Shown here one piece after another: positions 3,598-58,207 of a DNA stretch of 64,000 bases; the first letter of the stretch is position 1; the number at the start of each line of letters is the position of its first letter. The DNA comes from a virus, in IMG/VR virus record IMGVR_UViG_3300021440_000014, positions 1 to 64,000 of that record; one strand, 5' to 3'. Position numbers and translations under genes: made by a program. Below the pieces are notes generated by a model. It was not told the DNA's origin, did no database searches, and saw nothing but the letters and a program-made list of their open reading frames with translations.

Positions 3598-3598
3598 T

Positions 3599-3835
3599 AT
3601 GGCATCACTAGACTTCATATTTGATTTAACAAAAAAGCTTCAGAAACAAGACATCGACTTTTTGCTTATTACAGTTCAAAAAGGTGGAGCTAAAAGCACA
3701 GATAAAGTTCATGTATTCGATTCAATATCTCAAATGAAAAGTATTAAGGGAGTTATAGAAGGCATAGAAACTTCTAAGGATATACTAACCGAATACATAA
3801 AAGAATTTAAGAAAAACAAAAAAAATGGAAAATAA
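3599..3835 (+). CDS. Hypothetical protein
   Basis: 78-aa ORF tightly packed in the replication operon. Confidence 0.6.
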   Translation: MASLDFIFDLTKKLQKQDIDFLLITVQKGGAKSTDKVHVFDSISQMKSIKGVIEGIETSKDILTEYIKEFKKNKKNGK

Positions 3836-6392: not shown

Positions 6393-6393
6393 T

Positions 6394-18252: not shown

Positions 18253-18253
18253 T

Positions 18254-38985: not shown

Positions 38986-40245
38986 TTAGTAATCAATACT
39001 AGGAGCAAGACCGCTGAAGAACAAGCCCTTAGTCGTCTGCAACGGACCACCGATTTGAGACGAGAAGCTCAATGACACAGACTTATTAGGTCCAATTGAC
39101 GAAGTATAAGACTGAGAATCCAACTTAGCATTTCTCAAAGTATACTCAAGTGCTCTTAGAGAACCTGTTTGAGGGTGCTTAATTGCAATTCTAATGTCGT
39201 AGCTCTTATCTGCTTGAATAACGTCAACCAAGTTACCAGTGGTAAGGTCGCCAACGTTTGCGTCAACAGAAAGGTTCACTTGGACAGGGAATCTAATTTC
39301 TCTGGCGAACGCATATTTGCTGCCCAGCTTTTCAAGCGGATCTCTTGAAAGAGAGAAGCTTAGGTTGTAGCTCTGAATCTTCGCATCAGAAATCGTAAGA
39401 CCAGCTTCGTTAAGAGAGTTAGTTGTTCCAGCGTCCCAGAAGTCGAACGTGATGTCTCCCGGTCTTAAAGCCGAAATATTGTATGCATATCCTGCGTCAC
39501 CTACTCCAAGGTTTCCGCTTCCATAAGTGCCGAACATCTTACCATTAATAGCGTTACTCTTGAACGGAGGAATAGCAGCGTAAGTGCTTAATCCAGAGCC
39601 ATCAACGGGATTAACTGCTGGGCTAGGAACCCAAGATCCAGTTGCAAGTAATCCACCAGTAGCAGGAGCAACGAATCCGTTACCGCTTTGCTTTTGAGTA
39701 AATAAAATGTTAAGACCTTCTACGGAAACGCTAGTCGTTGGGAAATTACCAACGGACGCCTCGGTAGAGAAGTTAGAAATGAAACCGTTACCAATCGCAA
39801 TATATTGTTCTGGATTAGCACCGGAAAGTCCAGCATATTCAGCGGCATCAACACCTTCTGGAACAGTTTTAATAAAATAGTTTCTATCGTCTTCGGTCTT
39901 GTTAAGAATGTTAGCGATAGCAGATACATATCCCTGACCAGTATTAATGTAAAAACCTAACGCTTCTTCATTAGAGAAAGACGAGTTAAGATAAGAAAAG
40001 TCGAGGTTAACGGTAGGGGATTCAAGCAAAATACGGTCAATAGCAGCGAGTTCACCAAATTGGTTCACGTCCCTTCTATTCAAAGAGTAACCATAGTTAA
40101 TGGATTGAACTCTGACTAATTGTTTAACCTTGTAAAAACCAGTAGTTTGCCCAGCGGCAGTAACGGTTCCGTATTGCGTTCCTGTTGCAGGTGCAGGACC
40201 GGCTAGTAAACCTTCTGTTTGGTAAATTATTCTATTTTTTGCCAT
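38986..40245 (-). CDS. Major tail tube protein (two tube-like halves)
   Basis: Position between neck genes and chaperones/TMP. Own promoter motif and terminator, codon usage like the capsid gene. The two halves resemble each other (VQSINYGYSLNRRDVNQFG and IQSYNLSFSLSRDPLEKLG). Confidence 0.75.
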   Translation of the reverse strand: MAKNRIIYQTEGLLAGPAPATGTQYGTVTAAGQTTGFYKVKQLVRVQSINYGYSLNRRDVNQFGELAAIDRILLESPTVNLDFSYLNSSFSNEEALGFYINTGQGYVSAIANILNKTEDDRNYFIKTVPEGVDAAEYAGLSGANPEQYIAIGNGFISNFSTEASVGNFPTTSVSVEGLNILFTQKQSGNGFVAPATGGLLATGSWVPSPAVNPVDGSGLSTYAAIPPFKSNAINGKMFGTYGSGNLGVGDAGYAYNISALRPGDITFDFWDAGTTNSLNEAGLTISDAKIQSYNLSFSLSRDPLEKLGSKYAFAREIRFPVQVNLSVDANVGDLTTGNLVDVIQADKSYDIRIAIKHPQTGSLRALEYTLRNAKLDSQSYTSSIGPNKSVSLSFSSQIGGPLQTTKGLFFSGLAPSIDY

Positions 40246-43091: not shown

Positions 43092-45005
43092 CTAATCTAT
43101 TTTCTTGAAGCCGGGACCGATATCTCTTCTTCTAGAGCTATTTCCAGAATAAGACGCTTTTGGATCTGCTACGAATGGATTAGTTCCATAATAATATCTA
43201 TATCCTGCGGGAATCCTTGTTGGTTCATTTTCGGTAGGCTTATATGGATCGTATGGTGGCCACTGTAAGCTACCAAAGAATGTAGGCTTTGAAGTTAAAT
43301 AAAAGCTATTTGGAATTGTTTTATCATAAGTATGAACTACATTTTTTTCATCCCAAACAATTGCAGATCCGGGAGCTAAATCGCTGGCTCTATAACTCCA
43401 ATTACCCCATCTTATCATTGTTTCTCTTACGTTAGTATCGTATTCAAGAGATTCTCTTGGATTACGAGAATCATCTCCTGAACCATTTATTATATACCCT
43501 AATTTAAAAAGCGTAGTATAAACGTTGTCGTAAGGGAAATATTTTAGATTATAACACTCGTAAATAGATTCTGGTGCCCCTCCCGTTGTTCCTCCTAAAA
43601 TATTACCAACAAACATCCAATAATGATTTCTTCTACAAACATCTACGGTTATCGTCTGGGCGTCTATAAATTCATTCCCTCTATCTTGAGAAAATATTCT
43701 ATTTCTAAGAATAGTAAAATGAGAGCTTGTCCCCCAATATTCGTCTGCTCTTATACCTGATGCTGAAAAATTTCCTTCTATTAAATTCATAAAAGGATGT
43801 CCTCCGTGCATCAAATTACTAAATCTTCTAATAATATCTGAATCTCCTTCTCCTAATCTCCACCAAATATTTGTAACGAAATTATAGCTAACTACATTTC
43901 CAGAAGTGCATCCTTCAAAACATACTGTTCCTATCGTTAGTTTTTCTGATATATTATCCGTAATCAATAAAGCAGAAGTATGAGGGCCAAGAAAAATAGG
44001 ATATGCCCTGTCTGAAGTATAATGTAAATCTCTTTCGTTTCCGACCGGAACTCCTCCATAGAGATAGCAACCGCTTATTTCTGACCATAAAGCGTTATAA
44101 ACCCAGAAAGCCCTTCTATGTGCTCCTATCAATTTCACATTTTTTACCCAACAATTAACCCATCCAAAAACCGTAATAGTATCAAACGCATCTGAGTCTA
44201 GGTTATCAAGAGTTAAATTTTCTAAACCAGCCTCCTCTACCATTGGCCCAATTCTTACCGCTTGAGGTTGGTTTGTATAAGAAAAATACAAAGGAGGATC
44301 TATTTGAACCGTCGTTGAATTAACTACGTTAGTTATTTTGACTATTTGCCCACATGGTCTAGTCCCAGATTCTCTACCCAACCAAGTAGCATACTGATTA
44401 GCTCCTCCTCCTCCTGTTCCGGCTGATGTAAAATTCGAAACAGGAAGAATAGCACCCTCATTCGTTTTAGTGTCTACTATGAGATATTGACCTACTGACC
44501 AATTATGTGTTGTAGAAGTAGTTAAATTAACGGAATCTTTTGTTGGAGACACTAAATCAAAAGCTGGATAAGTTGACCAAGAGAAATCAAAACCCATATC
44601 AAAATTAACCATTCTTTTTGATAAAAGTTTAATTGGAGTAATTACTCCTGTTTCTGCATTCGTTGAATAGGAAGATATATAAAAAAGATCTGGAGAAACC
44701 CCTTTAATAATAGTTTCATACATGTTTTCTCCTTTTAAAGTTACATAACTTGGGATTTTTAAAGCTTCATCTATTAAATATGTTCCATTTTTTAAAAGAA
44801 CAATTTTATTTGGTGGGCAGTTACTTATAGCTGCTTGTATTTGTTTCGTTGTAGCCCCCGGATTTATAATAGTATAAATTTCTCTGTCCGTATTCACCGT
44901 AGATCTAAGACCCGGATTCCAGTTTATTCTTAAATTATCTGGAATAATAGTAGAAAAACAGTTATGAATAAATAGGAAAAAAAGTAAAAAATAAATTGAT
45001 TTCAT
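43092..45005 (-). CDS. Signal-peptide-bearing right-handed beta-helix (pectate-lyase-3/tailspike-like) protein, paralogue C3
   Basis: MKSIYFLLFFLFIHNCFS signal. IQAAISNCPPNKIVLLKNGTY...VTLKGE, MHGGHPFMNLIEGN, RADEYWGTS. Confidence 0.75.
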   Translation of the reverse strand: MKSIYFLLFFLFIHNCFSTIIPDNLRINWNPGLRSTVNTDREIYTIINPGATTKQIQAAISNCPPNKIVLLKNGTYLIDEALKIPSYVTLKGENMYETIIKGVSPDLFYISSYSTNAETGVITPIKLLSKRMVNFDMGFDFSWSTYPAFDLVSPTKDSVNLTTSTTHNWSVGQYLIVDTKTNEGAILPVSNFTSAGTGGGGANQYATWLGRESGTRPCGQIVKITNVVNSTTVQIDPPLYFSYTNQPQAVRIGPMVEEAGLENLTLDNLDSDAFDTITVFGWVNCWVKNVKLIGAHRRAFWVYNALWSEISGCYLYGGVPVGNERDLHYTSDRAYPIFLGPHTSALLITDNISEKLTIGTVCFEGCTSGNVVSYNFVTNIWWRLGEGDSDIIRRFSNLMHGGHPFMNLIEGNFSASGIRADEYWGTSSHFTILRNRIFSQDRGNEFIDAQTITVDVCRRNHYWMFVGNILGGTTGGAPESIYECYNLKYFPYDNVYTTLFKLGYIINGSGDDSRNPRESLEYDTNVRETMIRWGNWSYRASDLAPGSAIVWDEKNVVHTYDKTIPNSFYLTSKPTFFGSLQWPPYDPYKPTENEPTRIPAGYRYYYGTNPFVADPKASYSGNSSRRRDIGPGFKKID

Positions 45006-45775
45006 AAAGGATCGCTTCCAATTTTATCAGGGCTAACTCTCACTTTGTCTATTCTATAATCTGATGGAGTGTACTCAGAGTAAAACCATATTCCATTAGC
45101 TGAACCAGTTGACTTACCATTTGTTATCGCAGTGTAAAAAGATGATCCGCTGGCAGGTTTAGTTTCGCTATTCAAAGCCATAAATACTTCAGCAAGTGAA
45201 TTAGCTCCAGTTCCGGCAACATAATGTAACCATATACTTATAGTATCCGTAGGTGCTGCGGCACCAACTGTAGATATTTCTACATAGCCAGTTGATCCAA
45301 AAGCTCCTTCTATTAATTTCAAAGTGCCATTATAATTTAAATACAGCGAACAAATAGGAGTGTTATCTTGACTCCCAGACATTAAATTAAAAATAGTTGT
45401 TCCGTCTTGATATGTAACTCTTTTGAATCTAAAATACACATATACCTCTGAAGTTAAATCAAAAGCCCCAACGTAGTAGATACGAGCACCATCTTGAAGT
45501 CTTAAACTTTTAGAGCCAACAAGAGGATCTGTAGCATACGCGAATTCAACAGTTCCCACTAAAGGAAAACCAACAACAAATTGTTGAACCCAACCCGGAA
45601 GAAAAACTCCTTCTTGAGCATCCTCGAAATCTTCTTTATAAATATAAGTTGGAGCAGCCTCACAACAATCTGGGTTTTTAGTTAAATGATTTTTTCTTTT
45701 AAAGATTGAAACCTGCTGAGAAAAACACTGAGTAGATAAAAGAAATAAAAATATTAAATTTAAAATTTTTACCAT
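45002..45775 (-). CDS. Signal-peptide-bearing lectin/jelly-roll-like protein, paralogue B2
   Basis: MVKILNLIFLFLLSTQCFS signal. Aligns with 50593..51354 (E.FE, L.GS.SLR, YVAG.GAN..A.V, DK..V). Confidence 0.65.
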   Translation of the reverse strand: MVKILNLIFLFLLSTQCFSQQVSIFKRKNHLTKNPDCCEAAPTYIYKEDFEDAQEGVFLPGWVQQFVVGFPLVGTVEFAYATDPLVGSKSLRLQDGARIYYVGAFDLTSEVYVYFRFKRVTYQDGTTIFNLMSGSQDNTPICSLYLNYNGTLKLIEGAFGSTGYVEISTVGAAAPTDTISIWLHYVAGTGANSLAEVFMALNSETKPASGSSFYTAITNGKSTGSANGIWFYSEYTPSDYRIDKVRVSPDKIGSDPL

Positions 45776-46890
45776 GTTGCCGTCTCCTCTGGATCAACTA
45801 AGTTCTCGAAATACCTTATGACAATGAAATATATTTTGGCTACTCCGGGTAAGTCGTCTGCGGTTTCATCAACTAATCTTCTTATTCTTAAATCTAGAAT
45901 AGCCCCAGAAGTAGACGTTGAATGCCCAAGATTTAAGTTGCCACTTGAAGAGGATTTTATTAAATCGTTAAAAGCGGTTTGCGAGCTAGTTATTTTTATT
46001 TCAGTGCCATAAGATTGATCTACTGGATCATCGTGTTCTACCATATCTGCGGATATACCCCAAACTACGGATTTACTTGGGATTGCATTTGAAGCCGACC
46101 AATAGACTTTTACCTCTACATTACCTTTATCCCAAGTTTCAGGCATCGGGACGGAAGCGCAAACAGTTTGTATAGTCGTATTTGTAAACTCCATAAAGTC
46201 TCTTCTTTTAAAATTTACGATACTTTCTTCTGTCCCATAAATTGCGCCAGCCGTAAAATTAGTTAGCATGGCTCCCGCTGGTATAGCTAAGGTTCTGTAA
46301 ATACCAGATCTAGAATTATTCCTCCACTCTCCTTCTCCAGTGGTAGAATTAGTGCATGTCCAAACGTAGTTACTTTGCGCATTGCTATTGGGAATTCTAA
46401 TGTCAAATAATGTTGGACTGCGATTATAAACATTAGTATTATATAGACCCGTTCTATTATTTTGATATGAATCACACCAAAACTTTTGATTACTATAATT
46501 AAAGAAATACATGTTAGTAGAAGGGATTCCTCCTAAAACTGGATTGCTACCATCTAACTCTTTCGCATTAGAAGGAAAATACGCAAAAACAGAATTAGTA
46601 TTAACCAATTCTACAACTACCTGTTTAAATGTATTCGCTTCGTTTGGTTGATTGGCAAATGATATAGTGAAATTATTGCTAGGATAAACTATATAGTAAT
46701 TAGTCCTCCAATCTACAACTATGTTTGTTGTATTGTTAAGTTTAATCATCGTTTTAGATCCATTTTTAAGATTAAAAATGGAAAGACCTGTCTGAACAAC
46801 GAACCCAGTAACAGGATCATATTGAACAGTTCTTAGTTGTCCGAAACAAGTAATGGCACTAAGCAATAAAAATAAAAATATATTTCTCAT
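45769..46890 (-). CDS. Signal-peptide-bearing tail-fibre-like protein, paralogue A2
   Basis: MRNIFLFLLLSAITCFG signal. N-domain aligns with 51351..52115 (NTTN...W.TNYY...PSN.F.IS..N.P...VNTNS..AYFP.N). Fibre-like YVWTC...GEGEW and a C-terminal jelly-roll. Confidence 0.65.
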   Translation of the reverse strand: MRNIFLFLLLSAITCFGQLRTVQYDPVTGFVVQTGLSIFNLKNGSKTMIKLNNTTNIVVDWRTNYYIVYPSNNFTISFANQPNEANTFKQVVVELVNTNSVFAYFPSNAKELDGSNPVLGGIPSTNMYFFNYSNQKFWCDSYQNNRTGLYNTNVYNRSPTLFDIRIPNSNAQSNYVWTCTNSTTGEGEWRNNSRSGIYRTLAIPAGAMLTNFTAGAIYGTEESIVNFKRRDFMEFTNTTIQTVCASVPMPETWDKGNVEVKVYWSASNAIPSKSVVWGISADMVEHDDPVDQSYGTEIKITSSQTAFNDLIKSSSSGNLNLGHSTSTSGAILDLRIRRLVDETADDLPGVAKIYFIVIRYFENLVDPEETATW

Positions 46891-48698
46891 TAGTCTTTCT
46901 TGATTATAATTTCAAATTTTCCTTTTCCAAAAATCGTTTCTGGCGCAGGAGTTGGATCTACTACGGGTGGGGGTTCCTGTGTTCCTCCAGAAGAAGCGGG
47001 TGGATTTACTCCATAAACATATCTATATCCTGCTGGAATATTTGTTGGCGAAAAATTAGGATTAGAAGGATCGTATGGGGGCCATTTTAGGAAACCGAAA
47101 GAAGAAGGTTTGCTAGTGAGATAAAAGCTATCAGGAATTACTTTGCTAGTAGTATCTACGACATTATTAGGGTGCCAAGTTTGACCTGAGCCAGCTATCG
47201 TATCATTTGTCCTATAGCACCAATTGCCCCATCTAATCATAGTAATCAAAGTAGAAGGATCATAGCTTGTTGCCCCACTTCCTAGGCTATTATAGCCTAT
47301 TTTCCAAATAGAAGAAATAGAACTGCTATAAGGAGCAGGCTCTCCATTAATTAATTCGTAATTTCCCTCTTGGACTTCCGTTCCGCCAAGTAAATTACCA
47401 ATGAAAGACCAATACCAATTACGTCTTTCAACGTCTACTGTCCAAGTTTGTGCGTCATCTGCGCCTCTATCTATCTGGCAAATTCTATTTCTCAACGCAG
47501 TGAAATGAGAGCTTGTTCCCCAATACTCGTCTGCCCTGATACGTCCGCCACTCCAATTTCCTTCTATAAGATTCATCATGGGGTGAGGACCATGCATAAG
47601 CGGGCCAAAGCGTCTCGGGCTATCTCCAGTATTAGACCACCAAATATTTGTAATAAAATTATAGCTGAAAACATTACCAGAAGAGTTACCCTCCCAGCAC
47701 ATACCCATCGTAAGTTTTTCGAGAATATTGTCAGTAATTAAACATGCGGTCGCGTGTGGGCCAAGAAAAGGAGCATAAGATCTATCGCTAATATAAGCTC
47801 CGCTATTATCTGTTCCTACGGGGCGACCCTCATGAATTAAACATCCATTAATTTCGAACCATAGCGCATTATAAACCCAATAAGATCTTCTATCTATACC
47901 TCTCACTTCTATGTTCTTTGTCCAGCAATTAACTGCCCCAAAAACGCCTACGTTGTCTCTAACCCTAACTGGATGACCATTTAGCGACAAATCCTCTGCT
48001 CCAGCATACTCTGTGATTCCTGTCATTTTTACTCCCTGCGGAGAATTTGCGTAGCTCCAGTAAAGAGGGGGACTAAATGTAACGCTTGTTGGAGAAACTA
48101 CTGACGTAATTTTGACAAGTTGACCAACGCATCTTCTGCCTGAGTCTCTACCTACCCAATTAGCAGAACCTAAAGAGCCAGCATGATCCATTGGGGGGTT
48201 TCCGGCTGGCTGCTCTAACATATCAAAAAGAACTAAATCTCCAGTCACCCATCCATGTGCTGTAGTTGTGCTAATTGTATCACTATCTTTAACGGCTGAT
48301 ACTATAGATTTGGCGGGTTGACTCCAACTTTCATCAAAATTATTATCGAAAGAAATAATAGTGCTTCCAGAAAAGGCTGCGGCAGGTTGAAGGATAGTAT
48401 TACTAATTCCCGCCCCCCTCAAAGTAACTTTACTTGGGATTACTAGAGTCGAAGAAAGATTATAAGTTCCAGAAGATAATTGAACTACCTGATTTTGAGG
48501 ACAAGTATCTAATGCCGATTGAATTTCTGCTTTCGTCGCTCCAGCAGCAATAGTTTTAAAAATTACTGTTCTATTGGGGATTCCGCCTCTAACTCCAGCG
48601 TCCCAATTGATTCTATAAGAAGGAGGAAGAATTTCGCTTAAGCAACTGAAAGCGAAAAACATAAAAATAATAAAAATGGTAAATCTGATTTTGTTCAT
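46890..48698 (-). CDS. Signal-peptide-bearing beta-helix protein, paralogue C2
   Basis: MNKIRFTIFIIFMFFAFSCLS signal. IQSALDTCPQNQVVQLSSGTY...VTLRGAG, MHGPHPMMNLIEGN, Pro-rich C-terminal linker. Confidence 0.75.
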   Translation of the reverse strand: MNKIRFTIFIIFMFFAFSCLSEILPPSYRINWDAGVRGGIPNRTVIFKTIAAGATKAEIQSALDTCPQNQVVQLSSGTYNLSSTLVIPSKVTLRGAGISNTILQPAAAFSGSTIISFDNNFDESWSQPAKSIVSAVKDSDTISTTTAHGWVTGDLVLFDMLEQPAGNPPMDHAGSLGSANWVGRDSGRRCVGQLVKITSVVSPTSVTFSPPLYWSYANSPQGVKMTGITEYAGAEDLSLNGHPVRVRDNVGVFGAVNCWTKNIEVRGIDRRSYWVYNALWFEINGCLIHEGRPVGTDNSGAYISDRSYAPFLGPHATACLITDNILEKLTMGMCWEGNSSGNVFSYNFITNIWWSNTGDSPRRFGPLMHGPHPMMNLIEGNWSGGRIRADEYWGTSSHFTALRNRICQIDRGADDAQTWTVDVERRNWYWSFIGNLLGGTEVQEGNYELINGEPAPYSSSISSIWKIGYNSLGSGATSYDPSTLITMIRWGNWCYRTNDTIAGSGQTWHPNNVVDTTSKVIPDSFYLTSKPSSFGFLKWPPYDPSNPNFSPTNIPAGYRYVYGVNPPASSGGTQEPPPVVDPTPAPETIFGKGKFEIIIKKD

Positions 48699-48738
48699 AT
48701 AAGTATTATAATAATTAAAGTATGTAATATATACTTTT

Positions 48739-48744
48739 TTACAC
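48739..48744 (-). promoter_or_regulatory. Putative late promoter GTGTAA
   Basis: Intergenic, upstream of ATG 48698. Confidence 0.6.
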
Positions 48745-48766
48745 TATTTTAGGGATAATCAATAGA

Positions 48767-50596
48767 TTACCTGTCCATAGATTTTATATTAGGTCTTCCT
48801 TTACCATTTATGACTCTAATGTTTCCAGTTGATAGCCCAGATCCAGAACCCCCTCCACCCCCGCCTCCTTCTTGAGGGGGATTCCCTAGTCCAAAAGCTC
48901 TCCAAGCCGCAGGAAGATTAGTAGCAGTATTCATTGCTAAAGATCTAGTAGGATCAAACGGTGGCCAACTTAGCCCAGCAAAATTAGTTGGTTTAGCACT
49001 AAGATAAAATGAGTTAGTTATAGTAGTGTAAGAAGTATCTAAAACGCTGTTCGTGTGCCAAACTTGACCACTACCACTTATGCTATCATTAGTTCTGTAA
49101 GTCCAGCAGCCCCAACGAATTGTATTTGTCCATACATAAGGATCATAATTTGCACTGGTATTGCCTAAACTTTCATAGCCCAACTTCCAAATTGTTGCAG
49201 TTCCTTCTGAAAAAGATTCGCCTAATATGTATTCATAATTGCTTTCGTTGACACCGGGAGCACCACCTGCAACTTCGCCAAGAAACACCCAATTGCGGTT
49301 GTTTCTTTCAATGTCGTAAGTCCAAGCTTGTTGGGCGGGCGAACCTCTATCAACCTGAAGAACTCTATTGCGTAAGCTTACAAAACTATCTGAAGTTCCA
49401 AAGTATTCGTCTGCCCTTGTTCTGCCAGCAAGCCAATTGCCTTCAATAAGGTTTAAAGTAGGGTGAGGTCCGTGCATCAATACTGCAAAGCGGCGAGGAG
49501 GATCAGTGTTTGCGTCCCACCAGATATTAGTAGTATAATTATAAGAAAATACATTACCAGAAGCAGCACCTTCAAAAGATATCGCCATAGTAACCTTTTC
49601 TATCCAATTATCTGTAATTAAACCTGCGGAGCAGTGCGGACCAAGAAACCCACCATAGGCACGTTCGCTAGTATACTGCGCGTCATTATCATTTCCTACC
49701 GGAATACCTCCTTCAATATGGTTTGCTGAAATTGTTGGCCACAAAGCTCCATAAACCCAATATGCTCTAGATTTTATACCTCTTATATGGCACCTAGTAA
49801 CCCAACATTCTATGGCTCCTTGCCATTGAGTATTATGATCTATGGTTAAAGAGCTATTAGCGATAGTTACATCTTCCACTCCAGCCCTGTGAACTAATCC
49901 AGTTATTTTCGCTGACTGAGGGGAATTACTATAGCTACTATAAAAAGGAGGATCTATTTGAAATACAGTAGTAGATACAATATTTGTAATTTTAGATACT
50001 TGACCATTAGGGCGGTTTCCTACCGCCGCTGGTCTTCCGCAGTAATTACAATCTCCAAGTGTCCCTCTATTCCTGATAGGCTTTAAATTAGAAGTATTAG
50101 TAACTTGATCTATTATGACATAATCGCCTGCGCTGTAACCATGAGCCACGGAAGAGGTTGCATTCACGCTACCTTTTACTGGAGTGACTAAATCTCTTAT
50201 TGGTCCACTATCCCAATGGTAGCTATAACCATTATCAAACATTACTATTGTATTTCCTGAAAAAGTAGGAGCATTAGTCAATATAGTTACTCCCATGCCA
50301 GCCCCTCTTAAAGTCACGCCATCTTTACTCATCTCTATACTAGCAGAAAGAGAGTAAACTCCAGCAGATAAAAGGACTACTTGGTTCGATGGACACGCAG
50401 CTATAGCAGCATTAATTGTTGCTGCTGAAGCACCAGATACTATTGTGGTATAAATCGTTTGACGATCTGGAATGCCCCCTCTAACCCCCGGATTCCATTC
50501 TATAATTCTTTCATCTGGAATTATGGGCGAAAAGTTCTGAGATAGAGCATTAAAACAAAATGCTAATATAAATAAAATTGAAAATATTTTTTTCAT
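48767..50596 (-). CDS. Signal-peptide-bearing beta-helix protein, paralogue C1
   Basis: MKKIFSILFILAFCFNALS signal. INAAIAACPSNQVVLLSAGVY...GVTLRGAG, MHGPHPTLNLIEGN, poly-Gly linker near the C-terminus. Confidence 0.75.
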   Translation of the reverse strand: MKKIFSILFILAFCFNALSQNFSPIIPDERIIEWNPGVRGGIPDRQTIYTTIVSGASAATINAAIAACPSNQVVLLSAGVYSLSASIEMSKDGVTLRGAGMGVTILTNAPTFSGNTIVMFDNGYSYHWDSGPIRDLVTPVKGSVNATSSVAHGYSAGDYVIIDQVTNTSNLKPIRNRGTLGDCNYCGRPAAVGNRPNGQVSKITNIVSTTVFQIDPPFYSSYSNSPQSAKITGLVHRAGVEDVTIANSSLTIDHNTQWQGAIECWVTRCHIRGIKSRAYWVYGALWPTISANHIEGGIPVGNDNDAQYTSERAYGGFLGPHCSAGLITDNWIEKVTMAISFEGAASGNVFSYNYTTNIWWDANTDPPRRFAVLMHGPHPTLNLIEGNWLAGRTRADEYFGTSDSFVSLRNRVLQVDRGSPAQQAWTYDIERNNRNWVFLGEVAGGAPGVNESNYEYILGESFSEGTATIWKLGYESLGNTSANYDPYVWTNTIRWGCWTYRTNDSISGSGQVWHTNSVLDTSYTTITNSFYLSAKPTNFAGLSWPPFDPTRSLAMNTATNLPAAWRAFGLGNPPQEGGGGGGGSGSGLSTGNIRVINGKGRPNIKSMDR

Positions 50597-51354
50597 GGTG
50601 CTGACGTGGAATCTCCTACTTGAATTTTATCGTAGATTAATTCCATAATACCTGTAAAGTCTACCCAGCCTATAGCCAGCCAGTTAGCATTTGCTGTTCC
50701 TGTTCCAGTGCTTAAGCTAGTAAAATTATTTCCAGAAGTGGGACGAGAGCCATCTGTAGAGAAACATACTGAAGCAACTCCATTTGCCCCGCTACCCGCA
50801 ACGTATCTAATATAAACATGATAAGTGGTTCCATCAGACATTGTTCCAACAGTAGCAGACGAAGAGGTCGCCCCATGTCTTACTTTCAGTGCCCCGCCAG
50901 ATGTCAATAAAACATCTGCAATCCTACTTTGAGAAGAGTTCCATATTTCTAGCATTTTGGCGTCTCCAGAATTAGGTGTGCTAACTGGTCTTATCATGAA
51001 ATAAAACCATCTTTCTGATCCAGCAGTAAAAGTATTGTATATGAAACTAGAAGCATCACTTGCAGTTAATATTCTTAAAGATTGGCTACCATCTAGAACC
51101 GTAGTAGTATAGTCTTCATTAACTGTTCCTCCTCCAAGGGATTCAGTCCACGCAGGGGAAGTAGTTGAATATCCTGTTCCTTCAAAAGTTTCGTTTAAAA
51201 GAGTAGAAGTAAGTCCTCCGCTACCTCCCCCACCACCACCGCTAGACACTTTATATTTTAATATAGATGAAATAAATGAAACGTTCCTAACCCCAACTGA
51301 ATAAGAAGGCGTAAAAGAAAAAAGAATGAATAATATGATTAAATATTTTTTCAT
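50593..51354 (-). CDS. Signal-peptide-bearing lectin/jelly-roll-like protein, paralogue B1
   Basis: MKKYLIILFILFSFTPSYS signal, poly-Gly linker, then a beta-sandwich homologous to 45002..45775. Confidence 0.65.
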   Translation of the reverse strand: MKKYLIILFILFSFTPSYSVGVRNVSFISSILKYKVSSGGGGGGSGGLTSTLLNETFEGTGYSTTSPAWTESLGGGTVNEDYTTTVLDGSQSLRILTASDASSFIYNTFTAGSERWFYFMIRPVSTPNSGDAKMLEIWNSSQSRIADVLLTSGGALKVRHGATSSSATVGTMSDGTTYHVYIRYVAGSGANGVASVCFSTDGSRPTSGNNFTSLSTGTGTANANWLAIGWVDFTGIMELIYDKIQVGDSTSAP

Positions 51355-52115
51355 TTCCATTCAGAAATAGTTGTATAAACGTTCGTTCCTTCTGCGTCTA
51401 AAGTTAATATATAAGTTATCGAATTCGTAAGAGTAGACCAAATAGGAGAGTTGACGTTTGTATAAAAATAAGTTGCAAAACTAGGTCCACCTAAAGTAGG
51501 ATAAACTACAGTTCTGTTTACAAGTTGAGGTTTTATATATATAACTTTTGTTTTGCTTGTGCCAGCCTGCAAACCAGTTACATTCGTTATACTTATGTTA
51601 TTAGTAAGATACCAAGTCTCTGTTGGGACTTCCAAGTTTACTGTTAAATTACTGTTTACAGTGCTATTCGTGGCAACGTTTATAGTCGTTAAATTTTGAT
51701 ATATTTCCTGATGTGAATCTATCCAAAAAGTAGTTCCATTATATCTCATTGTGAACCAATTAGTTGACGGAGCCGCAGACATAAATGGAGTCGTAAAATT
51801 AGGCCCATTTGTAGGGAAATAAGCTATAGTAGAGTTGGTATTAACTACCTCTAAAACTATCGAGGCATAAGTTGATCCCGAACTTGGAACATTCGTCCAA
51901 GAAATAGAGAAATCATTACTCGGAGTAGCTCGGTAGTAATTCGTATTCCAACTGAGTAATACGTTTGTCGTATTGCCCAAATCAACCTGAGAATTTCTAA
52001 GTGCCGTTGGGACTAATTTTCTAGTAGAAGAATCGTATATTACAGTATTATATGTTGCCGCAAAAATAGAATTAAGCGTCAAAAAAAACAAGCAAATTAT
52101 TAATATTTTTTTCAT
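51351..52115 (-). CDS. Signal-peptide-bearing tail-fibre-like protein, paralogue A1
   Basis: MKKILIICLFFLTLNSIFA signal. Two tandem small beta domains, TN-rich. Confidence 0.65.
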   Translation of the reverse strand: MKKILIICLFFLTLNSIFAATYNTVIYDSSTRKLVPTALRNSQVDLGNTTNVLLSWNTNYYRATPSNDFSISWTNVPSSGSTYASIVLEVVNTNSTIAYFPTNGPNFTTPFMSAAPSTNWFTMRYNGTTFWIDSHQEIYQNLTTINVATNSTVNSNLTVNLEVPTETWYLTNNISITNVTGLQAGTSKTKVIYIKPQLVNRTVVYPTLGGPSFATYFYTNVNSPIWSTLTNSITYILTLDAEGTNVYTTISEWK

Positions 52116-52438
52116 TAAGAAACGTCCTCAATTACAGCGAAAATAAAATTATTTCCGGGTGGAAAAGTCATTTGGTTAGAGTCAGGAAAAGTTACCAAAA
52201 ACTCACCTTCATAAAAACCTTTTACAGATGTATCTCCAGAAACCCATGAATATTGGGCTATTCCCTGAGATGCGTCATAAACAGAGCCAGTCCTAGTAAT
52301 TATATCTCCAGAAGGGCGCAATTTATAATTAAAATTGACCAAGCAACCAGAGAGGTTAATGTTCTCTTCATTAGAGTCCTGTAGTTGAACTCTTAATACA
52401 GGGAGCACGTCCCCCTTTTTTAAATAAAAATCTATCAT
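52115..52438 (-). CDS. BppU N-terminal-like (fibre-anchoring Ig-like) protein
   Basis: FYLKKGD...LRVQLQD...INLSG...DASQGIAQYSW..GDT...G.YEGEF.VTF.D....TFP is the BppU_N-type pattern. Confidence 0.7.
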   Translation of the reverse strand: MIDFYLKKGDVLPVLRVQLQDSNEENINLSGCLVNFNYKLRPSGDIITRTGSVYDASQGIAQYSWVSGDTSVKGFYEGEFLVTFPDSNQMTFPPGNNFIFAVIEDVS

Positions 52439-52446
52439 AAAATATT

Positions 52447-52452
52447 TTACAC
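52447..52452 (-). promoter_or_regulatory. Putative late promoter GTGTAA
   Basis: Fits in a 14-bp intergenic gap, 8 nt upstream of the ATG. Confidence 0.65.
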
Positions 52453-55400
52453 TTATAACTTCCTAATAACTGTCCTGCTATCCGAATACGGACTCTTTAT
52501 GGTTATAAAATTACCAGCATTTTTAATCTTTGGATTTAAATTCGCATTAGAGTTTTTTATAATTATAGAACTTGAAGGAGCGACAAAAATCCTTGCTCTT
52601 GCAGACTGATGAACAGAAGAATAAGGTGCAGAACCAATAAGAGCTTTACCTGAAATGCTCTTGTCCAAAGATTTTCTAATTCTTGCAATCGCATTAATAT
52701 ATTTCTGAGCAACTAATGAAACTCTAGCTCTAGCAAGTATATTTTTGAAATTAGCATTCGCGATACTAGAAACAGCAAATTGATTTCTAAATACAGATCT
52801 AGATACTCTAGCAATAGAATTAATATTTTTCTGCGAAGAAATTTTAATCCTTGCGATTGCTAACTGATTCTTTAAGTAAAGAACTGATATAGAAGCCCTT
52901 GAAGACTGATTATAAGAGCTTGTTCTTGTTACTCTTGCTAACGATTGCTGGTTTTTAGCCAACGTAGCCGCAATCCTAGCTCTACCAGAGATAGACTGAA
53001 CCTGTAACGCGCTTCCAATTCTAGCAATACCAGATATATTTAAGCTATTCGTTTTACGTATCCTAGATATAGCCTGAATATTTTGAGCAGAAGATATATA
53101 AATAGAGCTTCTTGCGCTAATATTCTGAGAATAAGTTCTAGAAATTCTTGATACAGCATTTAAATTCTTCTGAGCCGAAGAAGTTATTCTTGCTCTAGCT
53201 GTAATTGAGTTTTGCTGTAATGCTGAACCGATTCGAGATACAGCAGAAATATTGTAACCTAAAGATTTAGATAACCTAGAGATAGCCTGAATATTATAGC
53301 TATTTGTTTTTGATACTCTGGATAAAGCAGATTGATTTTTATCAAAAGTTCTCTTTACTCTTGATAAAGCCTGAATATTTTGCTGTCTTACAGCAGTAAT
53401 GCGCGAAACAGAGCTTATATTAGCCGTATTCTGCTTTTGTATCCTAGATACAGAAGAGATATTTCTATTATATGTAGCTTTAACTCTCGATACGCCACTT
53501 ATGCTATAACTAGAGCTATTTTTAATTCTAGCTATACCTTGTTGGTTTTTCGAGGCAGAAGGATTGCCGATATAAGCTCTACCAGAAATACTAGAGAACC
53601 CAATGCTGTCTTGAGAAACTCTTAATGTTACCGTATCTCCCTCTAGGACAAGATAAATTCTATGATACGTTCCATCATCGGGGCAATATAGTATTACGTC
53701 ATTTCTATAGGGGCTTGAAGTCTCCGTTTGATTTATAGAAACGAATACATTATTAGAGTCTGATTCGTCCGCGAAAACATTGTAAGCTTTAGCGGAATCT
53801 TGGCAGAACAAGTTCCAGTTTAAAGCCGCAGAAGGAGGATTAGACTGATATTGGTCTATGTTTAATGTATAAACTCCATCCTGAGTTCTTAATCTTAGGG
53901 CATACCAGTTACTAGAATTTCCTAAAATTAAAACATCTGTGGAGTCCGCATTTTTAATTACTCTTGCTACCGACTGCTGATAAACGGAGCTAGGAGTTCC
54001 ACTCGAAATATATGCTCTGGCCTGCTGAGTCTTATTAACTTGACCTCTTATGTTAGAAGTTCCAGAAATACTTCTGTCTATAGCTGCTGTTCCAATCCTA
54101 GCGACAGCCTGAATGCTCTTTATAGCTGGGGCTTTAACATTCGCTAAAGACTGAATATTTTTGCTATAAGAAACTTTTATTCTAGATATAGAGCTTTGAT
54201 TTTTGCTGCTCGTTAAAGATATCCTAGATATAGCCTGTTGGAATTTTAAGCTGGAATTGGATATTCTTGCTCTTCCTTGAATATTATTCTGTTTTGCGGA
54301 AGTTATTCTTGAAACAGATTGAATATTATAATTAGAAGCTTTCGATAATCTAGATATAGCAGATTGATTTTTCGAGAACGAAGCAGAAATTCTAGCAATC
54401 GACTGCTGATTCTTGGATATAGATATTTTTATCCTAGAAATGGCTTGAATACTATACAGCCTAGAATTGGCGACACGCGCCAAAGCCTGTATATTATTAT
54501 TACCTTTAGTCGCTGTTATTCTGGCTATACCTTGCTGATTTTTGGAAACAGAAGAGGTTATTCTAGAAACGGACTGAATATTATAAAGCTTAGAATTAAC
54601 AACTCTCGATATAGATTGTATGTTGTTATTATTCTTTGTGGCTGTTATTCTGGATAGAGCCTGCTGATTCTTTTGAGTAGAAATGAATATTCTAGAAACA
54701 GATTGGATATTATAAAATCTAGCATTGACTATTCTTGCCGTGCTCTGGATGAAATAGTTTTTACCAGAAGTAATTCTTGATATCGCTTGTTGATTTTTAT
54801 TTAGTGAATTTCTAACGGAAGAAATAGACTGAATAAATTTTTGGCCAGACGCAGTAATCTTAGCGACAGAAGATATATTCTTGAATAAACTATTACTAAT
54901 TCTAGCTCTTGCTTGCTGGAAATTATTAGTTTTAGCAGACGTTATTCTTGAGACTGCACTTAAATTATAATTACGACCAACGGAAATCCTAGAAATACCC
55001 TGTTGGTTCTTCTGAAAACTATTAGATATCTTAGCGATACCCTGAATACTTTTATTATTAGATACTGTTATCCTTGATCTTCCAGATATAGAATAATCTA
55101 AAGTTTTCGAAACCCTAGCCAAAGATTGCTGGTTCTTCTGATTGGCTATGTAAATTCTAGATATCGACTGGATATTTTTCGCTGAAGAATTTGACAGTCT
55201 AGATACAGAAGAAATATTATACTGACTACTTCTACTTACTCTAGAAATAGCCTGTATATTATAAAATTTAGATAAAGATATTCTTGATATCGCCTGCTGA
55301 TTTATAAAAGAAGATTTATAAATTCTGGCAACAGACTGTATATTTTTGGATACACTTGACTGAATTCTAGCTTTAGCTTGCTGATCCGCAGAGTCTACAA

Positions 55401-56940
55401 CTTTAATTCTAGATACTGCTTGAATATATTCTAGGTTAAAATTAGAAATTCTAGATATAGCCTGAATGTTTTTCTGGGTAGACTGTAAAATACTAGACTT
55501 ACCTTGTATATAATAATTGGAAGTAGAACTTCCTCCCCCGCCACCAGAAGGCGCATTACCAGTAAAAGGATTTAAAGCAACGGCATGTAAAAGAGCATTT
55601 GATGCCGCCATTTCAACGCTAATGTAGCCGCTTGTAAAAATGTCTCTTTCATCTAAACCATCGTTTGTAGTGCTAAACGCTGCGTTTGGCTGAGTATTAT
55701 AAACAGTTAAAGTTCCAGAGGTTCCAGATCCACCAACATCATTTGCGTATGTAAAGTTTACCGCAAATCTTTGGCTGGGACTACCAGTGACAAGAAAATC
55801 ATACCTTGGTGAAGCTTTATATCCTGAAAATTTAGATCCAGTTGGACTTGTTAAATTAACTCCAGAATATTCTATTAAACCGGCAGCTAAAGTAATTGTA
55901 TCGAAAGCCCCGCCAGTGCTTTGAATTCTTACTGTAAATGGATTATTACCAGTTCTGGGATTTAAAAGATAATATTGGTGAGCGTGATTCCAAAATGGAT
56001 CAATCGTCTTACCTATCTCCGTAAAAACTTGATCTCCCCAACAAACACCAGAAATTCCAGAAGGATTAATGCCAGTTGTTACATTACTTTGATTATATGT
56101 AATGTTAGCTATTAATATTGTATTATTATTCGAGTAAGAAGTAAACCCAGAATAAGAAACTACGTATCCGCTACTTGAGGGATCGAAAATAGATCTTTCT
56201 CCTTTGCCGGATATTAAGGCAATTGTAGTTGGCCTGTATAAAGATGCTACGCTAGATTGATTTCTACTATTTTGCCTAGTAATTCTAGAAATACCCGAAT
56301 TACGACCATAGCCCCAAGTCGTAATAGGGTTAGAGAAACCAAGCCAAGGGTTGCCCGTTTGAGTTCCAGACTCTATATAAGGCAAATCTCCAGATTGTGC
56401 ATTGTAACCAAATCTATGCGTCGCCGTTCTAGATGTCGCCAACGCTTCGTAGGCTATAAAACCAACTTCAACAACTAATCTATCACCACCAGAAACGTTA
56501 ATATTTCCGCTGACTCCAGTATAAGGAGGGAAAAATCTTCCGCTTAAAGTAGGGGATAGAGGAAACTCCTGAGATGTTCCAGAATTGGGAAATCCAGAAT
56601 AAATTACGGCTCTTAAAGCGTTAGTAGGAGTAACAGCTTTAATAAGTATAGCATACTGCTGGTTAGCTAATAAGTTATTCTCGGAAACTTGAATGATACC
56701 GCTAATAAAACCGCTAATAGACTGCGTGGCTAATTCATCAGAAACGTATTGGCGAGTAAGAACCCTATAAGGGGTTGTAGCGATTGCTTTTGTGCTTAAC
56801 TTTCCAGTAAAAGCATGGTTAACTGGATTTATGCTGAGGTATCTTTTATCCGCTTCAGTAGTTCTATTCCAGCCGCTCTCGTAATTAATGTTCGTTACGG
56901 GCGCATTACCAGACTGAATAAAATAAAAACGATATGGCAT
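52453..56940 (-). CDS. 1495-aa repeat protein: two N-terminal beta domains plus about 60 basic 14-aa repeats; putative virion fibre or scaffold
   Basis: Repeat consensus [KY]N[IQ][QS][AS][IV][SA]R[IV]xxxxx read from the translation. Confidence 0.7.
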   Translation of the reverse strand: MPYRFYFIQSGNAPVTNINYESGWNRTTEADKRYLSINPVNHAFTGKLSTKAIATTPYRVLTRQYVSDELATQSISGFISGIIQVSENNLLANQQYAILIKAVTPTNALRAVIYSGFPNSGTSQEFPLSPTLSGRFFPPYTGVSGNINVSGGDRLVVEVGFIAYEALATSRTATHRFGYNAQSGDLPYIESGTQTGNPWLGFSNPITTWGYGRNSGISRITRQNSRNQSSVASLYRPTTIALISGKGERSIFDPSSSGYVVSYSGFTSYSNNNTILIANITYNQSNVTTGINPSGISGVCWGDQVFTEIGKTIDPFWNHAHQYYLLNPRTGNNPFTVRIQSTGGAFDTITLAAGLIEYSGVNLTSPTGSKFSGYKASPRYDFLVTGSPSQRFAVNFTYANDVGGSGTSGTLTVYNTQPNAAFSTTNDGLDERDIFTSGYISVEMAASNALLHAVALNPFTGNAPSGGGGGSSTSNYYIQGKSSILQSTQKNIQAISRISNFNLEYIQAVSRIKVVDSADQQAKARIQSSVSKNIQSVARIYKSSFINQQAISRISLSKFYNIQAISRVSRSSQYNISSVSRLSNSSAKNIQSISRIYIANQKNQQSLARVSKTLDYSISGRSRITVSNNKSIQGIAKISNSFQKNQQGISRISVGRNYNLSAVSRITSAKTNNFQQARARISNSLFKNISSVAKITASGQKFIQSISSVRNSLNKNQQAISRITSGKNYFIQSTARIVNARFYNIQSVSRIFISTQKNQQALSRITATKNNNNIQSISRVVNSKLYNIQSVSRITSSVSKNQQGIARITATKGNNNIQALARVANSRLYSIQAISRIKISISKNQQSIARISASFSKNQSAISRLSKASNYNIQSVSRITSAKQNNIQGRARISNSSLKFQQAISRISLTSSKNQSSISRIKVSYSKNIQSLANVKAPAIKSIQAVARIGTAAIDRSISGTSNIRGQVNKTQQARAYISSGTPSSVYQQSVARVIKNADSTDVLILGNSSNWYALRLRTQDGVYTLNIDQYQSNPPSAALNWNLFCQDSAKAYNVFADESDSNNVFVSINQTETSSPYRNDVILYCPDDGTYHRIYLVLEGDTVTLRVSQDSIGFSSISGRAYIGNPSASKNQQGIARIKNSSSYSISGVSRVKATYNRNISSVSRIQKQNTANISSVSRITAVRQQNIQALSRVKRTFDKNQSALSRVSKTNSYNIQAISRLSKSLGYNISAVSRIGSALQQNSITARARITSSAQKNLNAVSRISRTYSQNISARSSIYISSAQNIQAISRIRKTNSLNISGIARIGSALQVQSISGRARIAATLAKNQQSLARVTRTSSYNQSSRASISVLYLKNQLAIARIKISSQKNINSIARVSRSVFRNQFAVSSIANANFKNILARARVSLVAQKYINAIARIRKSLDKSISGKALIGSAPYSSVHQSARARIFVAPSSSIIIKNSNANLNPKIKNAGNFITIKSPYSDSRTVIRKL
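52575..55515 (-). repeat. Degenerate 42-bp (14-codon) tandem coding repeat in two blocks of about 37 and 24 units, separated by an insert of about 120 aa
   Basis: Hand count from the protein. Recurring ttctaga(t/a)atagcctgaat-like strings on the + strand. Boundaries approximate. Confidence 0.85.
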
Positions 56941-58117: not shown

Positions 58118-58123
58118 TTACAC
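58118..58123 (-). promoter_or_regulatory. Putative late promoter GTGTAA
   Basis: Downstream of the MCP terminator, upstream of the 180-aa gene. Confidence 0.65.
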
Positions 58124-58152: not shown

Positions 58153-58185
58153 AAAAAAAAACGACTTACGTTTTTGCGTAAGTCG
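58153..58185 (-). terminator. Rho-independent terminator after the major capsid gene
   Basis: CGACTTACG/CGTAAGTCG 9-bp stem followed by a run of nine T on the - strand. Confidence 0.85.
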
Positions 58186-58207
58186 CTTGTTATTTTATCT
58201 CTTGATA

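Follow-up and report, generated by a model that had tools for sequence, protein, structure and literature searches.

Why should seven consecutive genes in the structural region of a tailed phage, apparently encoding fibre, lectin and tailspike proteins, all begin with signals for export? Tailed phages are taught as being assembled wholly in the cytoplasm, and their depolymerases as virion-bound or leaderless soluble proteins. The first-pass annotation of the window (the whole stretch of 64,000 nucleotides that was analysed, from the 172-kb genome of an uncultured phage) described such a block and proposed that it specifies an exported adhesin or glycanase system. The seven ORFs do occupy positions 43092-52115, adjacent to one another and all on the minus strand. 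Their order, A1-B1-C1, C2, A2-B2-C3, is that of two three-gene A-B-C cassettes and one solo C gene (C2), all tightly coupled.

52447..52452, minus strand: promoter-like GTGTAA motif, heading the unit BppU_N-A1-B1-C1 and lying 14 nt upstream of its BppU_N-like gene
52115..52438, minus strand: BppU_N-like protein (PF10651), 107 aa, leaderless; its stop overlaps the A1 start
51351..52115, minus strand: A1, predicted leader, tail-fibre-type beta-sandwich domain and C-terminal domain
50593..51360, minus strand: B1, predicted leader, short conserved segment, poly-Gly linker and ConA-like jelly roll
48767..50596, minus strand: C1, predicted leader (ALS|Q) and right-handed beta-helix
48739..48744, minus strand: promoter-like GTGTAA motif, heading the unit C2-A2-B2-C3 and lying 46 nt upstream of C2
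46890..48698, minus strand: C2, solo leader-bearing beta-helix protein, in a clade with bacterial members
45769..46890, minus strand: A2, predicted leader (CFG|Q) and the A N-domain; its C-terminal domain differs from that of A1 and is virus-only
45002..45775, minus strand: B2, predicted leader (CFS|Q) and jelly roll; 29% identity to B1
43092..45005, minus strand: C3, predicted leader and beta-helix; basal branch of the phage-type C clade

Both copies of the GTGTAA motif that the annotation had reported are thus present, as is the BppU-like gene that it placed upstream in the same operon: the 107-aa product matches BppU_N at 27.6 bits, against a cut-off of 23.1. Homologues of this protein adjoin the cassette in the phage contigs L010, with the same gene order, and L004. 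The genome has 49 copies of the motif, oriented toward structural genes, and 30 of them lie in the 13.5% of its length that is non-coding. Co-regulation of the block with virion genes, under this structural-gene motif, is supported. The placement of the block between capsid and neck genes was not confirmed by sequence, as the flanking genes have no family matches except for a weak match to a scaffold.

Conservation of the leaders

The leader calls rest on a rule-based script of our own and on family conservation, not on a trained predictor such as SignalP. The script sought the features of Sec export and signal peptidase I cleavage, namely a basic n-region, a hydrophobic h-region of about 7-15 residues and small uncharged residues at positions -3 and -1. 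All seven proteins show the pattern that had been claimed for them: one or two Lys/Arg residues are followed by a hydrophobic core, with a Kyte-Doolittle mean of 3.0-3.25 over the best 10 residues, and by small residues at -3/-1, giving predicted leaders of 15-19 residues. Only one of the other 41 window ORFs of at least 100 aa reaches comparable hydropathy (61843-62595, which has a lipobox-like LNGC); the remainder do not exceed 2.16. Under a looser cut, 21 of the 224 ORFs in the genome qualify, so that a run of seven consecutive leaders lies far beyond chance.

Conservation points the same way. Leaders are found in 102 of 120 C homologues, in 118 of 140 A-family proteins, and in 57 of the 69 proteins on the B1 and A2 match lists taken together (65 B and four A2); the same rule picks out only 39 of the 224 ORFs of this phage. 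Throughout the C family the leader ends exactly before a single conserved mature N-terminus that is common to the bacterial proteins. Between C1 and the C protein of phage contig L003 (74% identity) the leader sequence has diverged while the mature start is identical, and this is how real signal peptides evolve. The leaders thus look genuine and conserved across three protein families, and the seven proteins probably leave the cytoplasm, the compartment in which the particle is assembled.

The cleavage sites proposed by the annotation are plausible, and that of C2 (CLS|E) is supported because its bacterial homologues are cut directly before the same E/Q-I-I-P motif. No lipobox with Cys at +1 was found in six of the seven proteins; C2, which has the sequence FAFSC, was considered as a signal peptidase II lipoprotein and rejected, since homology puts the cut at CLS|E instead. 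A search for type IX secretion C-terminal sorting domains found no CTD family match in any of the seven (Pfam, NCBIfam). The +1 residue is Gln in three of them (C1, A2 and B2) and in 23-28% of family members, against a background of 5-6%, a pattern that may reflect the Q-rule of Bacteroidetes (PMC5837995, PMC10653852, PMC10367356). The host is probably a diderm, and a member of the Bacteroidota.

Folds, relatives and genomic contexts

The receptor-binding-type folds described in the annotation were recovered in all three families: a fibre/spike-type beta-sandwich in the A N-domain, a jelly roll in B and a beta-helix (PF12708) in C. A1 and A2 share 38% identity over 150 aa. The closest structural matches of the A N-domain are to phage proteins, namely the Pa223 capsid spike (Z 7.9), the KP1 baseplate (7.1), the N-terminus of CBA120 TSP4 (7.0 and 6.8) and the Solidus tailspike (6.8); two non-phage chains follow at Z 6.2 and 6.1, and scores then fall to 4.3 after rank 7. 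Against BFVD, the same domain matches annotated tail fibre proteins with E ~1e-6. The C-terminal domain of A2 matches virus-only clusters with TM 0.85-0.87. The A family mostly forms the C-terminal end of fibre-like proteins of 400-1800 aa, many of which have a conserved post-leader N-terminal domain; A1, for example, corresponds to the last 250 aa of a leader-bearing protein of 900 aa in L003. Neither A1 nor A2 has the long shaft or the conserved N-terminal domain of these long fibres; they match the distal part only, and our search for a virion-binding domain in the block proteins found none.

For B, the modelled jelly roll (pLDDT 86) finds PL20, PL7 and PL36 lyases, X122 and lectin domains in Foldseek, with E down to 6e-10 and TM 0.46-0.57. 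The B proteins have no Pfam match, Laminin_G_3 included, and a profile comparison with the LamG domain in the bacterial protein P0012 gave none either; nor does an invariant His/Tyr/Arg set, sought as lyase catalytic residues, run through the 46 sequences compared. One protein, P0221, is an A-B fusion through the same poly-Gly linker. In a set of 185,579 species genomes, one MAG contig of 2.3 kb gave the only match to B, and from their homologues A and B appear to be essentially phage-only.

The C proteins match Pect-lyase_RHGA_epim (PF12708) at 30.0 (C1), 34.8 (C2) and 29.9 (C3) bits, against a gathering cut-off of 27, over only about 65-90 N-terminal residues. A profile search with C also matched mannuronan C5-epimerases (1.8e-5), and the family has a conserved HGxH...NLIEGN block. 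Its sequence is best read as that of a right-handed beta-helix and putative enzyme, from a family natively exported in bacteria. The nearest relatives of C2 are indeed bacterial, and it nests among their genes. Two of them, P0004 (65% identity) and P0012 (58%), lie between Wzy_C, polysaccharide deacetylase and Wzx flippase genes, and a third, P0007, lies among housekeeping genes. None of the three phage C copies is itself inside a polysaccharide-synthesis gene cluster, as the genes for P0004 and P0012 are; the link to bacterial Wzx/Wzy loci nevertheless points to a likely class of substrate. The annotation had named closest homologues that are ordinary host genes as one finding that would tell against it: this is the case for C2, but not for A, B or the C1/C3 clade. 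Another bacterial C homologue, P0086, does carry a type IX sorting-domain family, PF18962.

The survey of related phages that the annotation had suggested shows clear phage linkage for A, B and the C1/C3 clade. The A-B-enzyme cassette, leaders included, recurs in unrelated phage contigs of 56-62% GC, and in other phages it occupies the classical tail-fibre locus. From these comparisons it is a conserved, mobile set of fibre-type, lectin-type and beta-helix proteins with predicted export signals.

An exported module or parts of the particle?

What might such a set be for? The phage has a complete, lambda-type tail tip of its own (two gpM, gpL, gpK, gpI and gpJ), all leaderless, as well as a leaderless LamG protein, and the cassette is therefore accessory and not needed as its only receptor-binding equipment. 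The annotation's exported adhesin or glycanase system is still the best reading of the leaders, folds and co-regulation, with export itself deduced from the leaders. We give about even odds to an accessory module, exported by Sec, whose proteins would bind and cut the surface polysaccharide of the host from the periplasmic side late in the infection. The seven late-expressed proteins would leave the cytoplasm via Sec and have their leaders removed by signal peptidase I. A and B, as phage-specific partners, would most likely bind glycan or hold the C enzyme, and in the periplasm or envelope the module could bind and cut or remodel a capsule, EPS or O-antigen-type polymer of the host during its assembly. 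The likely benefit would be the escape of progeny, which would not be lost on debris or on already-infected cells.

Support for this periplasmic module comes from the leaders in all three families, the bacterial kin of C2, the phage's own tail tip, the shaftless A1 and A2, the solo C gene of phage contig L014, which lies outside the tail genes in a moron-like position, and two leader-bearing glycan-type proteins that the phage encodes outside the virion module, a LamG_3+fn3 protein and an NMT1_3 binding protein. There is also a precedent, which serves as a working analogy. That capsule loci can encode periplasmic beta-helix lyases is established, and the periplasmic form of VexL degraded its polymer in vivo whereas the cytosolic form did not (PMC6003464). 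VexL-type glycanases likewise combine a signal peptide with a right-handed beta-helix, and a periplasmic location gives the enzyme access to nascent polymer; the nearest homologues of C2, too, are found in polysaccharide-synthesis loci. The differences are that C has no detectable sequence kinship to VexL, that the loci of the C homologues are Wzx/Wzy-type and not ABC-type, and that here phage genes in three copies, of putative activity, have fibre-like and lectin-like partners. One result on VexL tells against the periplasmic module: periplasmic VexL shortened the Vi antigen and yet sensitivity to a Vi-specific phage remained, implying that removal of a receptor from inside may be incomplete.

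The main rival, which we consider possible but doubtful, is that A, B and perhaps C are parts of the particle, accessory fibres or spikes that mature in the periplasm. They would be exported, lose the leader, acquire a pyroglutamate cap and possibly disulfides, fold in the periplasm and dock on cytoplasm-built particles only at lysis, perhaps via the BppU_N-like protein, which is leaderless; a hybrid is conceivable, with A and B as particle parts and C as a free enzyme. The modelled A fold, being that of a virion fibre or tailspike adaptor domain, argues for such appendages and against the periplasmic module, as do the mostly C-terminal position of the A family in long fibre-like proteins, the A-B fusion, and the use of the tail-fibre locus by the cassette elsewhere. 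In this phage the cassette is part of the structural operon, shares its motif with tail and connector genes, and is translationally coupled to the BppU_N-like, adaptor-type protein, with the same order in L010. Several diverged cassettes per genome also resemble, by analogy, the host-range device of multi-tailspike phages. In CBA120, for example, TSP1-4 are carried on branched adaptors (PDB 7rfv, 7rej); as here, one phage encodes several diverged beta-helix proteins, co-expressed with virion genes, and the A N-domain resembles the N-terminal docking region of TSP4. Known tailspikes, however, lack a signal peptide and are assembled within the cytoplasm, whereas here every member has a leader. 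A limited literature search found no published exported tailed-phage fibre, and the missing shaft and anchor region of A1 and A2, the leaderless tail tip and the nesting of C2 among bacterial genes also weigh against appendages.

The cultured Bacteroidota phage phiSM of Cellulophaga offers an experimental parallel for such appendages, with adjacent leader-bearing gp08 and gp09 in its head-side structural region (KC821616.1). The former has a Q-rule leader and is recorded as 'structural protein, experimental MS/MS proteomics', having been detected in virions; the latter, a GDSL + CBM4_9 'pectate lyase', has no virion note, unlike its neighbours, a point in favour of the periplasmic module. phiSM is nevertheless a myovirus whose gp08 and gp09 have no sequence homology to A, B or C and whose record is silent on leaders, and envelope contaminants can occur in virion preparations. 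It is unlikely that in a large phage group with Bacteroidota-type hosts, most of it uncultured, the receptor-binding appendages are built outside the cytoplasm, with fibre, lectin and spike proteins Sec-exported, trimmed and capped in the periplasm and joined to finished particles only at lysis, the window holding an accessory version docked via the BppU_N-like protein. Porphyromonas phages also have Sec-leader genes whose products expose an N-terminal Gln, read as adaptation to host export (Matrishin et al. 2023, PMC10367356); these specify five proteins of unknown function together with capsid and spanin genes, and no fibre, lectin and beta-helix cassette is described.

Two further readings are less probable still. 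The leaders might be uncleaved anchors, by which the proteins would stay fixed to the inner membrane on its periplasmic side or be kept at the membrane until lysis, so forming an envelope-bound shield or superinfection-exclusion layer instead of soluble enzymes. Phage exclusion proteins encoded beside receptor-binding genes are known, such as Llp of T5 and Cor. In some A-family relatives the hydrophobic N-terminus is longer, and a conserved AGTKVS-type motif comes after it in place of a clear small-x-small site, and the B1 site is ambiguous under our script. The short leaders with good -3/-1 residues, the Gln at +1 in three proteins and the cut position fixed in C by homology to bacterial proteins make anchoring improbable. 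Very improbable, and slightly more so, is that these are host-derived morons, captured bacterial envelope genes that inherited their leaders and serve lysogenic conversion or nothing. The bacterial clade of C2 is as this predicts, and the OMP beta-barrel genes near cassette genes in L014 (where the gene bears a leader and lies near the solo C) and L003 are comparable to Lom among the lambda tail genes. Against it, A and B are essentially phage-only, leaders, recoded to 35% GC, are retained by all three C paralogues (44-48% mutual identity), the genes have overlaps with adjacent ones and lie behind the structural-gene motif, and the cassette is conserved across unrelated phages. Llp of T5, Cor of phi80 and N15, and Lom and Bor of lambda are signal-peptide or lipoprotein genes among tail genes whose products act on the host envelope and are not in the particle; each product is a single small protein blocking or decorating a receptor, in contrast to the multi-gene fibre-lectin-enzyme set described here.

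A cassette with leaders would mean either that phages attack surface polysaccharide from inside during infection or that some attachment parts mature outside the cytoplasm. Either, if true, would change the annotation of receptor-binding genes, the prediction of host range and the mining of depolymerases from metagenomes of Bacteroidota-rich habitats.

Predicted signal peptides and control of the block

Seven minus-strand ORFs, their stops and starts overlapping or abutting, encode tail-fibre-type proteins (A), ConA-like jelly rolls (B) and right-handed beta-helix proteins (C). They are organised, together with an adaptor-type gene, as follows.

43092-52115, minus strand: the seven genes, in the order A1-B1-C1, C2, A2-B2-C3
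51351-52115, minus strand: A1
48767-50596, minus strand: C1
46890-48698, minus strand: C2
52115-52438: BppU_N-like gene, 107 aa, leaderless, overlapping the start of A1

All seven begin with a predicted Sec-type leader of 15-19 residues, comprising one or two basic residues, a hydrophobic core (10-residue Kyte-Doolittle mean 3.0-3.25) and small residues at -3 and -1. These calls come from a rule-based script that uses basic residues, hydropathy and the -3/-1 positions, not from a trained signal-peptide predictor. A comparable leader occurs in only one of the 41 other window ORFs of at least 100 aa (61843-62595, with a lipobox-like LNGC), and a looser cut-off is passed by 21 of 224 ORFs genome-wide; given this rarity, seven in a row are not due to chance, and the uninterrupted run reported in the first-pass annotation is borne out. 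Among orthologues the leader sequences diverge while the mature start is identical, as in the evolution of real signal peptides. Export and cleavage of the seven proteins, as predicted from their sequences, are well supported. Gln follows the predicted cut in three of the seven and in 23-28% of family members, against a background of 5-6%, an enrichment that fits the Q-rule of Bacteroidetes (PMC5837995, PMC10653852). Q-rule leaders have already been noted on some Porphyromonas phage genes (PMC10367356).

The O-glycosylation motif D[ST][AILMVT] is not enriched in the seven proteins (8 occurrences, compared with 9.1 +/- 3.0 in shuffles), and their cysteine content of 1.2% is uninformative, since neighbouring structural proteins have 0.55% and the genome as a whole 1.5%. 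Cysteines at alignment columns 179 and 182 co-occur (phi 0.82), and an NCBIfam search of the seven added nothing.

The claim that a BppU-like gene precedes the block also held, the match to PF10651 scoring 27.6 bits against a cut-off of 23.1. Complex prediction for mature A1 with this protein gave a score of 0.00, which speaks neither for nor against binding. The hexamer GTGTAA, earlier proposed as a late motif, lies 14 nt before the BppU_N-like gene and 46 nt before C2. It has 49 copies in the genome, 30 of them within the non-coding 13.5%, and the non-coding copies in the window precede genes for tail, connector and tape-measure proteins by 14-74 nt, the sole exception being that at 58118 (710 nt). 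This placement implies that the block has its control motif in common with the virion genes, as two units. Immediately upstream of the BppU_N-like gene, a leaderless 1495-aa protein (52453-56940, minus strand) consists of dozens of basic repeats of ~14 aa (N-I-Q-A-I-S-R-I type); it has no Pfam match.

The three protein families

A1 and A2 are 38% identical across their first 150 residues and divergent thereafter. A profile search of 1.84 billion representatives returned 155 A-family proteins, in most of which the A region forms the C-terminal end of a fibre-like protein of 400-1800 aa, many having a conserved domain directly after the leader. Leaders are present in 118 of 140, and in 77 of the 85 that have at least 500 aa. 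The A1 N-domain is modelled confidently, the C-terminal half having pLDDT <50, and its best structural matches are the capsid spike of Pa223 (Z 7.9), a baseplate protein of KP1 (7.1), the N-terminal region of CBA120 TSP4 (7.0 and 6.8) and the tailspike of Solidus (6.8). Next come two non-phage chains (6.2 and 6.1), after which Z falls to 4.3. Annotated tail fibre proteins in BFVD match the same domain, and the A2 C-terminal domain matches virus-only clusters (TM 0.85-0.87); a feature search of a protein atlas with A1 gave only weak viral leads. In one homologue, P0221, the A region is fused to a B domain through a poly-Gly linker, the same as that following the leader of B1, implying that A and B are one functional unit that is split in this phage.

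B1 and B2 are 29% identical, and all 65 homologues of B are metagenomic. Locus scans, run with a 10-sequence subset since the large alignment was too diverse, gave one 2.3-kb MAG contig in 185,579 species genomes and one match in IMG/VR. The metagenomic origin of the homologues and the single MAG contig suggest that B is essentially a phage family. When the search lists of B1 and A2 are combined, leaders occur in 57 of 69 proteins. B is confidently predicted to fold as a jelly roll (pLDDT 86), the nearest solved structures being PL20, PL7 and PL36 uronate lyases, an X122 domain and lectin-type domains (TM 0.46-0.57), with ConA-like phage proteins among the BFVD matches. No catalytic signature is conserved across the family, and B may be either a lectin or a lyase. 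Equating B with the LamG domain to which C homologues from bacteria are fused was rejected, homology being undetectable, so that those fusions provide no argument for a B-C unit.

The C proteins belong to PF12708, with weak profile similarity to mannuronan C5-epimerases, and are 44-48% identical to one another (C2 and C1 47%, C3 and C1 44%, C2 and C3 48%). A search gave 129 homologues; a leader is present in 102 of the 120 listed and ends immediately ahead of a conserved mature N-terminus, I-I-P-x-x-R-R-I-N-W-D-P-G-V-R-G-G-I-P, implying that the leader is an ancestral, defining trait of the family. Some homologues are bacterial. P0004 (65% identical to C2) and P0012 (58%) lie between genes for Wzy_C, polysaccharide deacetylase and a Wzx-type flippase, amid glycosyltransferases; P0007 adjoins obg and ribosomal protein genes, and P0047 flagellin and glycosyltransferase genes. 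Another bacterial homologue, P0086, has a T9SS C-terminal sorting domain (PF18962), which means that, in Bacteroidota, some bacterial relatives of C are secreted onto the cell surface.

In a quick maximum-likelihood tree the three copies from the window do not form one group, and accordingly they did not arise by a recent tandem triplication. C2 groups with P0005-P0008, within the clade that contains P0004; C1 groups with two relatives, of which P0032, from the phage contig L003, has a confirmed phage context; and C3 is basal to the clade of C1, which also includes P0031 from a phage contig. On this tree C2, at least, seems to have been exchanged with bacteria. C2 has no tblastn match in 50,697 phage records, nor has the 419-aa neighbour, and none was found for C2 in the IMG/VR scans.

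The cassette in other phages and the tail of this one

Members of the A-B-C cassette are found in other phage contigs, and all those listed here are leader-bearing.

Cassette members in other phage contigs
L003, 43.6 kb, 61% GC: 900-aa leader-bearing protein aligning with A1 over its final 250 residues, followed by B (65% identity to B1) and C (74% identity to C1)
L004, 80.8 kb, 62% GC: 316-aa protein, then B, a beta-helix protein and a BppU_N-like gene
L006 and L007, 56-57% GC: 876- or 909-aa protein, then B; in L007 next a 1145-aa enzyme with a GDS motif
Fifth contig: B where the tail genes end, ahead of an integrase
L010, close relative of the present phage: same order, 107-aa gene, A, B, C

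The cassette is both conserved and mobile. In L003 it lies between head-side genes and those for the tail chaperone and tape measure, and in a further contig, L014, a solo C gene is in a moron-like position. The C proteins of L003 (10753-12588) and the window (48767-50596) are 74% identical in contigs whose GC contents, 61% and 35%, are 26 points apart, which suggests either that phages with widely differing hosts exchanged the gene recently or that constraint on it is very strong.

The present genome, G000, is a single contig of 172,010 bp and 35% GC, of which the window is the first 64 kb, and is that of an uncultured siphovirus. Its own tail and probable capsid genes include the following.

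Minus strand: tape measure gene, 2985 aa
17731-25506, plus strand: complete lambda-type tail tip, with two Phage_min_tail (gpM) genes, a gpL-type minor tail protein, JAB + NlpC/P60 gpK, a gpI-sized gene and a 1431-aa gpJ
58159-58188, minus strand: strong intrinsic terminator (12-bp stem, T run), directly after a 365-aa gene (58208-59305)

The leader script found no leader on the tape measure gene or on any tail-tip gene. The two gpM-type genes are in tandem (17731-18757, plus strand), and the N-terminus of the first weakly matches CBM_5_12, a carbohydrate-binding domain. Flanking candidates for capsid, portal and tube gave no matches among Pfam, PHROG or PDB sequences. A strong terminator is expected after a major capsid gene, and the 365-aa gene is probably that gene. 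Two adjacent paralogues of 440 and 419 aa (37590-38912 and 38986-40245, minus strand) have near-identical N-termini (M-x-K-N-R-I/V-I-Y-Q) and match nothing in Pfam, PHROG or PDB sequences; they are probably tail tube proteins, not capsid. Upstream of the scaffold/portal-side genes, the 250-aa ORF at 61843-62595 (minus strand) has a lipoprotein-type leader (L-N-G-C) and weakly matches SurA_N_3 (E 0.005).

Possible periplasmic action or assembly into the particle

Why should a phage have predicted export signals on a block of fibre-, lectin- and beta-helix-type proteins? We favour, with about evenly balanced confidence, an accessory module in which the seven proteins would leave the cytoplasm and act from the periplasm on host surface polysaccharide late in infection. 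The C family is natively exported in bacteria and some of its members lie in polysaccharide-synthesis loci; G000 has leaderless adsorption gear of its own; A1 and A2 are without the shaft and N-terminal domain of the long family members; and a solo C occupies the moron-like position in L014. G000 is moreover predicted to export two proteins whose genes lie far from those of the virion, a LamG_3 + fn3 protein and a binding protein. An established analogue, VexL, points the same way, since polymer was degraded in vivo by its periplasmic form but not by its cytosolic one (PMC6003464). With VexL in the periplasm, sensitivity to a Vi-specific phage was not abolished, which counts against strong removal of receptors from inside.

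In the main rival, A, B and possibly C would be parts of the particle that mature in the periplasm and dock at lysis. We consider this rather unlikely. The fibre-type fold of A, the location of the cassette in tail-fibre loci of other phages and its coupling to the BppU_N-like adaptor-type gene all speak for it. It also has one experimental parallel in gp08 of Cellulophaga phage phiSM (KC821616.1), a protein with an N-terminal Q-rule leader whose annotation as structural comes from MS/MS proteomics. The leader-bearing neighbour, gp09, a 'pectate lyase' with GDSL and CBM4_9 domains, carries no virion note, and this pair suggests a hybrid arrangement, in which the particle would carry the fibre-like part and the enzyme would be free. 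Neither gp08 nor gp09 has homology with A, B, C or the 1145-aa enzyme of L007. Both genes, at 2501-7032 of the phiSM record, start with leaders of Bacteroidota style, on which the GenBank record is silent.

The periplasmic binding protein, an NMT1_3 protein with Gln at +1, is encoded outside the virion module (L015; G000:C1 117371-120220 and 128677-129942) with two unknown proteins and the LamG_3 + fn3 protein (Laminin_G_3, 421 aa), all leader-bearing.

Periplasmic glycanases of polysaccharide loci, leaderless virion tailspikes and Q-rule leaders on a few Porphyromonas phage genes are already known. A literature search of limited coverage found no account of a cassette of several fibre, lectin and beta-helix genes in which every member has a leader. 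This window contributes the connection of C with Wzx/Wzy loci of bacteria, the fusion of A with B, and a cassette that is plainly accessory to a leaderless tail tip. Single exported phage proteins encoded beside tail genes are known in Llp, Cor and Lom. Finally, leader-bearing OMP_b-brl (PF13505) barrel genes, which resemble lambda Lom, lie near the cassette in L003 (5484-5981) and near the solo C in L014 (12317-12826), two unrelated contigs.
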